This document shows, piece after piece, positions 51,748 to 53,060 of a DNA stretch of 64,000 bases; the stretch's first letter is position 1, and every line of letters begins with the position of its first letter. This DNA comes from Eledone cirrhosa (lineage: Eukaryota). Below the pieces are notes generated by a model that worked only from the letters and a program-made list of their open reading frames with translations, did not search any database and was not told the origin of the DNA. The stretch is from positions 1-64,000 of the forward strand of contig CAXHJY010001376.1 in assembly GCA_964016885.1 (NCBI GenBank), given 5' to 3'. A program made the translations under genes and the position numbers.

Positions 51748-51998
51748 AGTTATGTAATAAACAACATAAGGCAATTATTCCATTTACCAGTGGTTTCTTA
51801 AAAGCAAAAGATGTTGCTTTCAATCCTCGGAATGAAAAAATCCTGGTCTGTTTATTGAATTAGGATTTTAAAAACCCTTTTAAAATCCTAATTCAATAAA
51901 CAGACCAGGATTTTTTCATTCTGAGGATTGAAAGCAAAATCTTTTGCTTTTAAGAAACCACTGGTAAATGGAATAATTGCCTTATGTTGTTTATTACA

Positions 51999-52003
<5 letters not shown>
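51748..52003. mobile_element. ~255-bp palindrome (family J) with a hammerhead on each arm
   Basis: Apex ttttaaaaacccttttaaaa; plus arm catt-CTGAGGA(51921)-ttgaaagcaaaa tc ttttgcttttaa-GAAA-cca c tgg-TA-aatg; minus arm has CCGAGGA. Confidence 0.88.
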
Positions 52004-52034
<31 letters not shown>

Positions 52035-52035
<1 letters not shown>

Positions 52036-52240
52036 CGTTTCTGAAGAGGTCACAGAGTGTGTGACGAAAGGACTATGACTATATATATAAACAACTATCT
52101 GGTTGTGGAACCAACCAACCAACCAGAAATTTATAAGTTTGTAAATTTGTAAATTTATAAATTTATAAATATATAATAAATTGAAGTGAAAGCAACTGGT
52201 GCGTGTGTTTCTTATTGGCAACATGACCCTCCCAAAGTAT

Positions 52241-52246
<6 letters not shown>
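52035..52246 (+). mobile_element. PLE 3' end related to family F with hammerhead-like core
   Basis: CTGAAGA-g-gtcaca gagtg tgtgac-GAAAG; ends atgaccctcccaaagtataacaata like family F and 13775-13808. Confidence 0.6.
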
Positions 52247-52298
<52 letters not shown>

Positions 52299-52359
52299 TT
52301 CATTCATACATATATATATGTATGAATATATATATATATATATATATGTATGAATAAAG

Positions 52360-52457
<98 letters not shown>

Positions 52458-52516
52458 GTGTGTATATATATATGTGTGTGTATGTATGTGTATATATATA
52501 TATATATGTGTGTGTA

Positions 52517-52557
<41 letters not shown>

Positions 52558-52572
52558 ATATATATATATATA

Positions 52573-52627
<55 letters not shown>

Positions 52628-52766
52628 TAAAATAACAGATTAAAGTTTAAGCAAAGAATCGCTGCTTTCACCCTTAACGGGATCTTCTGAAACTAACAAA
52701 GTCAAACTGTAAACGCAGAAGTGGATATTTCAAAAAACGTTGCAACCGGAGGAAGACAGGAAGACG

Positions 52767-52802
<36 letters not shown>

Positions 52803-52948
52803 ATGCGTGTGTATGTGTGTGTGCATGTGTGTTTATCTACCTTTATTTTTATTCTTTTTCTCCTTTCCTTCTTCTTCCTCCAGTCTCACTTTCATATATA
52901 TTATATTTTTGTTTTTAAAATCCACTGTCAATAAATACAGCAGGATTT

Positions 52949-53008
52949 TTTCATTCTGACGAATGAAAGCAAATTTGTTTGCTTTCAAGAAACCACTGGT
53001 AAATGAAA
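52949..53008 (+). ncRNA. Type I minimal hammerhead ribozyme motif (family J, second locus)
   Basis: tttcatt-CTGACGA(52956)-a-tgaaagcaaa tttg tttgctttca-a-GAAA-cca c tgg-TA-aatgaaa; all three stems pair; predicted cleavage after 53001. Confidence 0.85.
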
Positions 53009-53060
53009 TAATTATCTTATGTTGTTTATTACATAACTATATATATATATATATATATAT

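Follow-up and report, generated by a model that had tools for sequence, protein, structure and literature searches.

Hammerhead motifs of an Eledone cirrhosa locus as probable truncated 3' ends of a Hydra-clade Penelope-like element

The first 64,000 bases of an 80.8-kb contig from the 3.0-Gb genome of Eledone cirrhosa (hereafter, the window) contain three copies of a unit of about 126 nt, one on the minus strand (H0, 51748-51873) and two on the plus strand (H1, 51878-52003, and H2, 52913-53038), each enclosing a hammerhead ribozyme motif. Two of the copies mirror each other in a long palindrome and the third lies downstream, an arrangement that raises the question of whether these motifs are parts of a working RNA device or remnants of mobile elements. 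The features relevant to this question are collected in Table 1. Very probably, the three motifs stem from one Hydra-clade Penelope-like element, of which they are 5'-truncated 3' ends belonging to two subfamilies and inserted in (TA)n; cleavage after GUA is predicted only when two hammerheads are paired.

Table 1. Features of the hammerhead locus and the internal hammerhead of subfamily A (window coordinates unless a locus is named)
Feature	Position	Strand	Characteristics
Hammerhead H0	51778..51837	-	Damaged: U4C at 51829, stem II mismatch at 51813
Hammerhead H1	51914..51973	+	Intact family sequence, GUA, predicted cut after 51966 (descriptor and nearest-copy comparison)
Hammerhead H2	52949..53008	+	Core complete; C7 and A10.1 unlike all nearest relatives; GUA, predicted cut after 53001
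Left inverted arm of the subfamily B insertion	51435..51604	-	Ends just short of the hammerhead, which is absent from this arm; 91% match to 52767-52941 over 176 nt
67-nt Penelope tail on the minus palindrome arm, subfamily A	51681..51747	-	Ends in (TA)n
Minus palindrome arm, inverted 5'-truncated 3' end of subfamily A	51746..51872	-	127 pairs with 51879-52005
Plus palindrome arm, 5'-truncated 3' end of subfamily A, short end into (TA)n	51879..52005	+	99% match to 39 other genomic places; 3' end pattern
Spacer between H1 and H2, unrelated repeats and microsatellites	52034..52770		Matches elsewhere in the window; includes a core and stem II motif of another family at 52041
Right arm of the subfamily B insertion, 5'-truncated 3' UTR and terminal repeat into (TA)n	52767..53040	+	96-98% match to 39 other genomic places; flanks
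Internal hammerhead of subfamily A, outside the window	loci L091-L102, e.g. L093:5501-5602		In the 3' UTR; G at the cleavage site, intact core

A search with a strict descriptor identifies four complete motifs in the window, whereas 100 local shuffles give 0.02 on average and at most 1, and an exact gapped motif pattern with A at the cleavage position has 6,755 matches in the genome and none in the reversed control, so that the window motifs are not due to chance. H2 consists of a 7-bp stem I, the CUGACGA sequence, a 10-bp stem II, GAAA, the stem III acca-c-tggt and the GUA site, with an A.A mismatch (positions 10.1/11.1) separating the core from stem II; its position, stems I and II, core and predicted cut are exactly those given in the preliminary description. 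H1 has a U10.1-A11.1 pair, a stem II of 11-12 bp and the stem III acca-c-tggt; its cut had been correctly predicted, but the motif had been placed at 51911-51970, 3 nt off. The type I core (C3-U4-G5-A6-N7-G8-A9, G12-A13-A14, A15.1-U16.1 and H17) is present in both H1 and H2, and the G10.1-C11.1 pair in neither. Both mismatches of the palindrome fall in the minus-strand H0, one altering the core and the other breaking a stem II pair, so that H0 and H1 do not form the intact back-to-back pair that had been proposed. With the U4C substitution seen in H0, activity is reported to drop considerably in vitro but not to be lost entirely in vivo (PMC3088659).

The 60-nt sequence of H1 is identical in 28 of the 29 nearest copies, whereas H2 differs at N7 and 10.1 from all 29 of its nearest copies, which have U/C (25 copies) or U/U (4 copies) at these positions. 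Thus, the family sequence is carried by H1 and not by H2, which had been put forward as the best candidate, and H1 is the better choice for an assay. The A.A mismatch in H2 was at one point regarded as disabling; this reading is softened because A at 10.1 recurs in the genome (9 of the first 100 genomic matches listed, counted by eye) and mismatches at this position are common in the published Hydra hammerheads (PMC8557442). No Rfam hammerhead family matches here at the gathering score, nor among the 122 matches with E<=10 in the 47.5-54 kb region; the matches to Rfam miRNA models correspond to the palindrome hairpin and to microsatellites.

The palindrome is present as originally described, with 127 pairs, 2 mismatches and a 6-nt spacer between the arms. 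H0 and H1 together make up one subfamily A insertion in head-to-head orientation, tailed on the H0 arm only, which lies inside an inverted insertion of subfamily B that includes H2. Given that the B insertion has its own inverted arm on the left, the A palindrome and other repeats lie between two B arms, within microsatellites, and the two B arms have three rare variants in common, found in 1, 0 and 4 of the 29 nearest relatives, respectively. The A palindrome and the other repeats appear to have been inserted after the B insertion. H1 and H2, of subfamilies A and B, respectively, are 87% alike and are separate nested insertions. The genomic places at 96-99% in Table 1 (39 for each copy besides its own) are from 40 scored places among 724 candidates for H1 and 40 among 1,497 for H2.

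The tail stretch found on the H0 arm also occurs after the terminal hammerhead and before the ORF in full-length tandem copies. Among the 25 head-to-head pairs less than 500 nt apart in the loci examined, 22 combine a tailed and a short end as in the window, two have two short ends and one is cut by the locus edge; the first 100 matches listed include nine head-to-head pairs (counted by eye) at about 500 nt or closer. These pair statistics comprise the 25 close pairs and the whole-genome pattern counts, with wider pair tables, in which loci are repeated and internal copies are miscounted as short ends, left aside. Contigs of four public runs (at most two samples from one study) cover the element, with loose ends at both 3' end points, and among the pieces listed from these runs, none extends across the palindrome, so the junction is neither confirmed nor denied by them. 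The palindrome is a known type of inverted truncated copy with the tail on one arm, and because the mirror-image layout is a known insertion footprint, the locus is ordinary.

The window contains several other repeats and motifs. A short interspersed repeat at 53096-53397, with the first 120 nt tandemly duplicated, has more than 10 relatives in the window, and the adjacent stretch 53052-53097 has an inverted copy near 53471-53516. A short end motif adjoining (TA)n at 52212-52245, also present at 13776, 44107, 48349, 48695 and 50429, is probably the end of another (TA)n-targeting element. A second Penelope-like insertion at 49355-49939 (+) retains the remnant of a GIY-YIG endonuclease that has cysteines between the motifs; the remnant precedes a hammerhead-like core and stem II motif at 50205 (+), with an inverted copy 1.3 kb upstream, at 48941 (-). 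Hammerheads, or core and stem II motifs, of other families are found at 31531 (+), 30420 (-), 41817 (-), 48051 (-) and 52041 (+); the one at 31531 is complete, with a 6-bp stem I, a palindromic stem III and GUA, and those at 30420 and 41817 are related to each other. Finally, the region 18657-28356 is a 9.7-kb array of about 810 copies of a 12-nt unit, with 91% matches and a strong GC skew.

Elsewhere in the genome, longer copies show that the 126-nt end lies downstream of an open frame of about 710 aa encoding a reverse transcriptase (RT) and a GIY-YIG endonuclease and that, in partial tandems, this end and the tail lie just ahead of the following frame. A protein search of the genome identifies, among the 150 places listed, about 25 (by eye) with frames of more than 700 residues. 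In 12 of 12 loci chosen for long frames, the open frame has 711-718 residues, and in 10 of these 12 the terminal hammerhead with a 66-nt tail is located about 105 nt before it. The period of the element unit is 4.1-4.7 kb. A frame of this kind is also linked to subfamily B, that of H2, at three loci (L103, L108 and L119).

All three proteins checked contain the RWK, DKT, LYRDDG, CxCx5C, CxxC and CxH motifs and lack the CCHH cysteines; RWK, DKT, the CxCx5C linker, CxxC/CxH and the absence of CCHH are the marks of the Hydra clade as defined by Craig et al. (2021, PMC8557442). Also as in this clade, a single ORF with the RT followed by a C-terminal GIY-YIG domain is linked to the 126-nt 3' end, insertion is into (TA)n (of the 58 nearest copies, 30 run directly into (TA)n, 26 have the tail and two have other ends), and there are partial tandems, inverted 5'-truncated copies and a tail at one end. 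The unit exceeds the length of generally less than 3 kb given for the clade, a descriptive trait, on account of its microsatellite-rich 3' UTR. A Pfam search with five frames gave no RT or GIY-YIG match, and a PDB sequence search gave no meaningful match. The placement in the Hydra clade, as suggested here, follows from the protein motifs. The Naiad clade was considered and ruled out given the C-terminal position of the endonuclease. The family appears, from its sequences, to be a young, high-copy addition to the Hydra clade with open reading frames, distinct from Hydra-1_Obim.

Locus L066 (4560-6800, minus strand) has an open frame of 747 residues from another Hydra-like family, with 35% identity to the subfamily A protein. 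At locus L245 (1715-2475), three terminal hammerhead units follow one another head-to-tail at intervals of 357-403 nt, much as at the beginning of a retrozyme-like array. Loci L201-L230 and the genome at large also contain older hammerhead families related to this one, at least two in number, with a longer stem II and the stem III acc-(ttt or tct)-ggt (771 pattern matches, many in head-to-head pairs).

An alignment of 15 sublineage copies reveals changes on both sides in 5 of 22 pairs, four of these in stem II, although the counts are not independent events because the copies were hand-picked for diversity and are mutually related. Pairing is found in 92% of the cells of this alignment, compared with 33-50% in slid controls, and position 10.1/11.1 pairs in 5 of the 15 copies; the core and stem III are invariant, so that stem III is uninformative for covariation. 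In computed folding, the probability of the hammerhead fold for the monomer is 0.01-0.05 in a 60-nt context, and other folds are preferred in contexts of 128-141 nt. The double hammerhead lies at most 0.2 kcal/mol from the dimer minimum for H1.H1, H2.H2 and H1.H2 and 8-9 kcal/mol below two monomers, with the short helix III lengthened in the computed dimer, in agreement with the earlier expectation that a 1-nt stem III loop leads to cleavage as a dimer. Covariation and dimer folding thus support a putative minimal, dimer-type hammerhead of type I. The predicted catalytic step in the parent element is rated as likely and not higher, because published tests of such ribozymes report low activity (PMC4209133) or a need for protein (PMC11167929).

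These observations are best compatible with the following scheme. In a tandem transcript of the parent element, two terminal repeats would form a double hammerhead and release a unit-length RNA, a process that is probably slow and assisted by the element's protein, in line with reports on other Penelope elements. The stubs in the window, without an ORF or a known promoter, are likely inert passengers that would have been gaining private mutations, namely U4C in H0 and the changes at N7 and 10.1 in H2. Should a read-through transcript arrive from upstream, H1 would be locked in the palindrome hairpin, with a computed energy of about -198 kcal/mol, so that its sequestration, as previously envisaged, is borne out by computation. 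Nothing suggests selection on the layout of the window. The role of the Penelope hammerheads is treated as an open question in the relevant reports (PMC8557442, PMC11167929), and since no published assay of any Hydra-clade hammerhead was found in the literature searched, H1 provides a clean test substrate.

A different view of the catalytic step, which leaves the identity of the element unaffected, is that the conserved fold does not cut as free RNA and either requires the element's protein or has a role in binding. Minimal Penelope hammerheads are reported to show no activity as monomers and low activity as dimers (PMC4209133), the Anolis Poseidon hammerhead is reported to cut only with protein and to be dispensable for insertion in vitro (PMC11167929), and the G10.1-C11.1 pair is absent from the family. 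Nevertheless, the sublineages share an invariant core and show covariation in stem II, and stem III is, as computed, long enough for a stable dimer helix; cutting by the RNA itself is preferred, and dependence on protein or a binding role is doubtful, albeit worth keeping in mind.

The remaining alternatives concern the locus itself and carry far less weight. That H1 and H2 work together as an RNA device, with a plus-strand transcript across both forming a double hammerhead and the palindrome switching H1 off, is energetically sound, given that the H1.H2 double hammerhead at -32.6 kcal/mol is close to the cofold minimum of -32.8 kcal/mol and the computed hairpin is far more stable than the hammerhead. 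The two motifs come, nevertheless, from different subfamilies and different insertions, the sequence between them is made up of various other repeats, the 36-64 kb region has no conspicuous host coding frame and the same palindrome geometry recurs across the genome, all of which makes a functional layout, as initially suggested, very improbable. Even less credible is a single non-autonomous retrozyme with a 1.04-kb unit bounded by H1 and H2: the two repeats are 13% different, the spacer does not recur as a unit and the flanks of each repeat match ORF-bearing elements, against which stand the two direct hammerhead repeats about 1 kb apart and the argument that animal retrozymes come from Penelope repeats (bioRxiv 10.64898/2026.07.22.740005). 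The specific candidate of a non-LTR retrozyme, a head-to-tail array of a non-coding unit, is largely refuted by the divergence of H1 and H2 and the unrepeated spacer. Equally far-fetched is a fold-back artefact of assembly or sequencing; although the window lies on a small contig, the arms of the palindrome differ at two sites, the tail is on one of them and the same asymmetry of tailed and short ends is seen in 21 further close pairs, located almost exclusively on large chromosomes. Nested insertions of truncated element ends are, accordingly, the preferred explanation of the locus.

In 12 of 12 full-length loci, the parent element of subfamily A has a second hammerhead, located 280-450 nt past the stop codon and 1.2-1.8 kb before the terminal one, which is absent from three of three ORF-linked copies of subfamily B. 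This internal copy looks like a self-insertion of about 100 nt into a microsatellite of the element's own 3' UTR. A pattern anchored on the flank of the internal copy has 535 matches genome-wide, of which 533 have G as the cleavage base; among 30 internal copies found via a flank outside the ribozyme, G17 is present in all 29 that reach this position and CUGANGA in all 25 that reach the core. Because all 533 copies descend from few masters, G17 represents one event. According to PMC3884650, cleavage with G17 drops by a factor of at least 300 in minimal hammerheads and by a factor of 8 to 100 in tertiary-stabilised ones, and a C3-G17 trap is seen in computed folding of the internal copy. No description of such an internal copy was found in the text of the literature searched; Kalweit and Hammann refer to natural motifs with G17 as unpublished observations (PMC3884650).

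The internal copy is quite probably a relic. It might instead be a helper, G17 protecting the full-length RNA while the intact internal catalytic half pairs with and cuts the terminal hammerhead 1.2-1.8 kb downstream. Between an old terminal copy and the youngest internal copy, there are 13 substitutions over 96 sites, none of them in the 11 core bases (P=0.18) or in the 30 bases of the 'enzyme half' (P=0.005, for a set chosen after seeing the data), and in the youngest internal lineage the 7-nt stem I strand is retained despite loss of the upstream flank, observations in favour of a helper. A helper is nonetheless improbable, given that the internal copy has accumulated changes faster than the terminal copy (13 against 5) and has acquired a mismatch in stem II as well as an altered stem III, that the computed internal-terminal double hammerhead weakens from -29.4 to -24.9 and then to -22.0 kcal/mol and is not the minimum in the youngest lineage, and that subfamily B does without an internal copy. 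Parallel changes in the internal and terminal copies (U to G at N7 and, some 15 nt upstream of the core, G to A, in loci L231-L250 and L091-L102) hint at very short conversion tracts or template switching between copies, and conversion could keep the internal core without selection. A helper, if real, would amount to an asymmetric double hammerhead within one element, for which a tandem copy would be unneeded, and would be indirect proof of cutting in vivo. The internal G17 copy is thus a natural experiment on the role of the hammerhead: the ribozyme matters in vivo if the terminal site is cut with the help of this copy, and likewise if an A17 form of the copy destroys the transcript.

Among the published systems, Hydra-1_Obim from Octopus bimaculoides (Craig et al. 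2021, PMC8557442) shows the preference for (TA)n and has a hammerhead with the stem III acca-a-tggt, compared with acca-c-tggt here, and the E. cirrhosa family shares with it and with the Hydra clade the protein motifs listed above, the C-terminal GIY-YIG domain and the 3' hammerhead. The Hydra hammerheads tabulated in the same report mostly have a 4-bp stem III with a 1-2-nt loop, and many have an unpaired base on both sides of stem II; likewise, stem III here has 4 bp and a 1-nt loop, and an unpaired base is often present on each side of stem II. The inverted 5'-truncated copies and the tail at one end also have counterparts there: Penelope-13_HM, a Hydra consensus, includes an inverted copy with the motif on both strands, and a figure legend describes an inverted truncated copy with a one-sided tail. 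Unlike in Hydra-1_Obim, stem II has 10-12 bp instead of 7 and the cleavage site is GUA instead of GUU, and 23 of the first 40 residues of the proteins match (by eye). With respect to Hydra elements in that report, the unit is long, the tail has about 67 nt as opposed to 30-40, and subfamily A has the internal second hammerhead.

The metazoan Penelope elements of Cervera and de la Pena (2014, PMC4209133) have dual minimal hammerheads on opposite strands, 100-700 bp apart, and resemble the present family in the long helix II, the tiny near-palindromic helix III, the dimer architecture and the prevalence of solo truncated copies; their consensus has G10.1-C11.1 and a shorter helix I, in contrast to U-A, C.A or A.A and a 7-bp helix I here. 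The Anolis Poseidon element PAc (Frangieh et al. 2024, PMC11167929), a member of another clade, is similar in having two 3' end points separated by the tail, AT-rich targets and a tandem pLTR-ORF layout, but its hammerhead overlaps the start codon, whereas here the hammerhead precedes the start codon by about 250 nt. Animal non-LTR retrozymes, for which a Penelope origin is proposed, likewise have type I hammerheads with a short helix III (bioRxiv 10.64898/2026.07.22.740005); they are head-to-tail arrays of one non-coding unit, unlike the dispersed truncated ends of a coding element described here.
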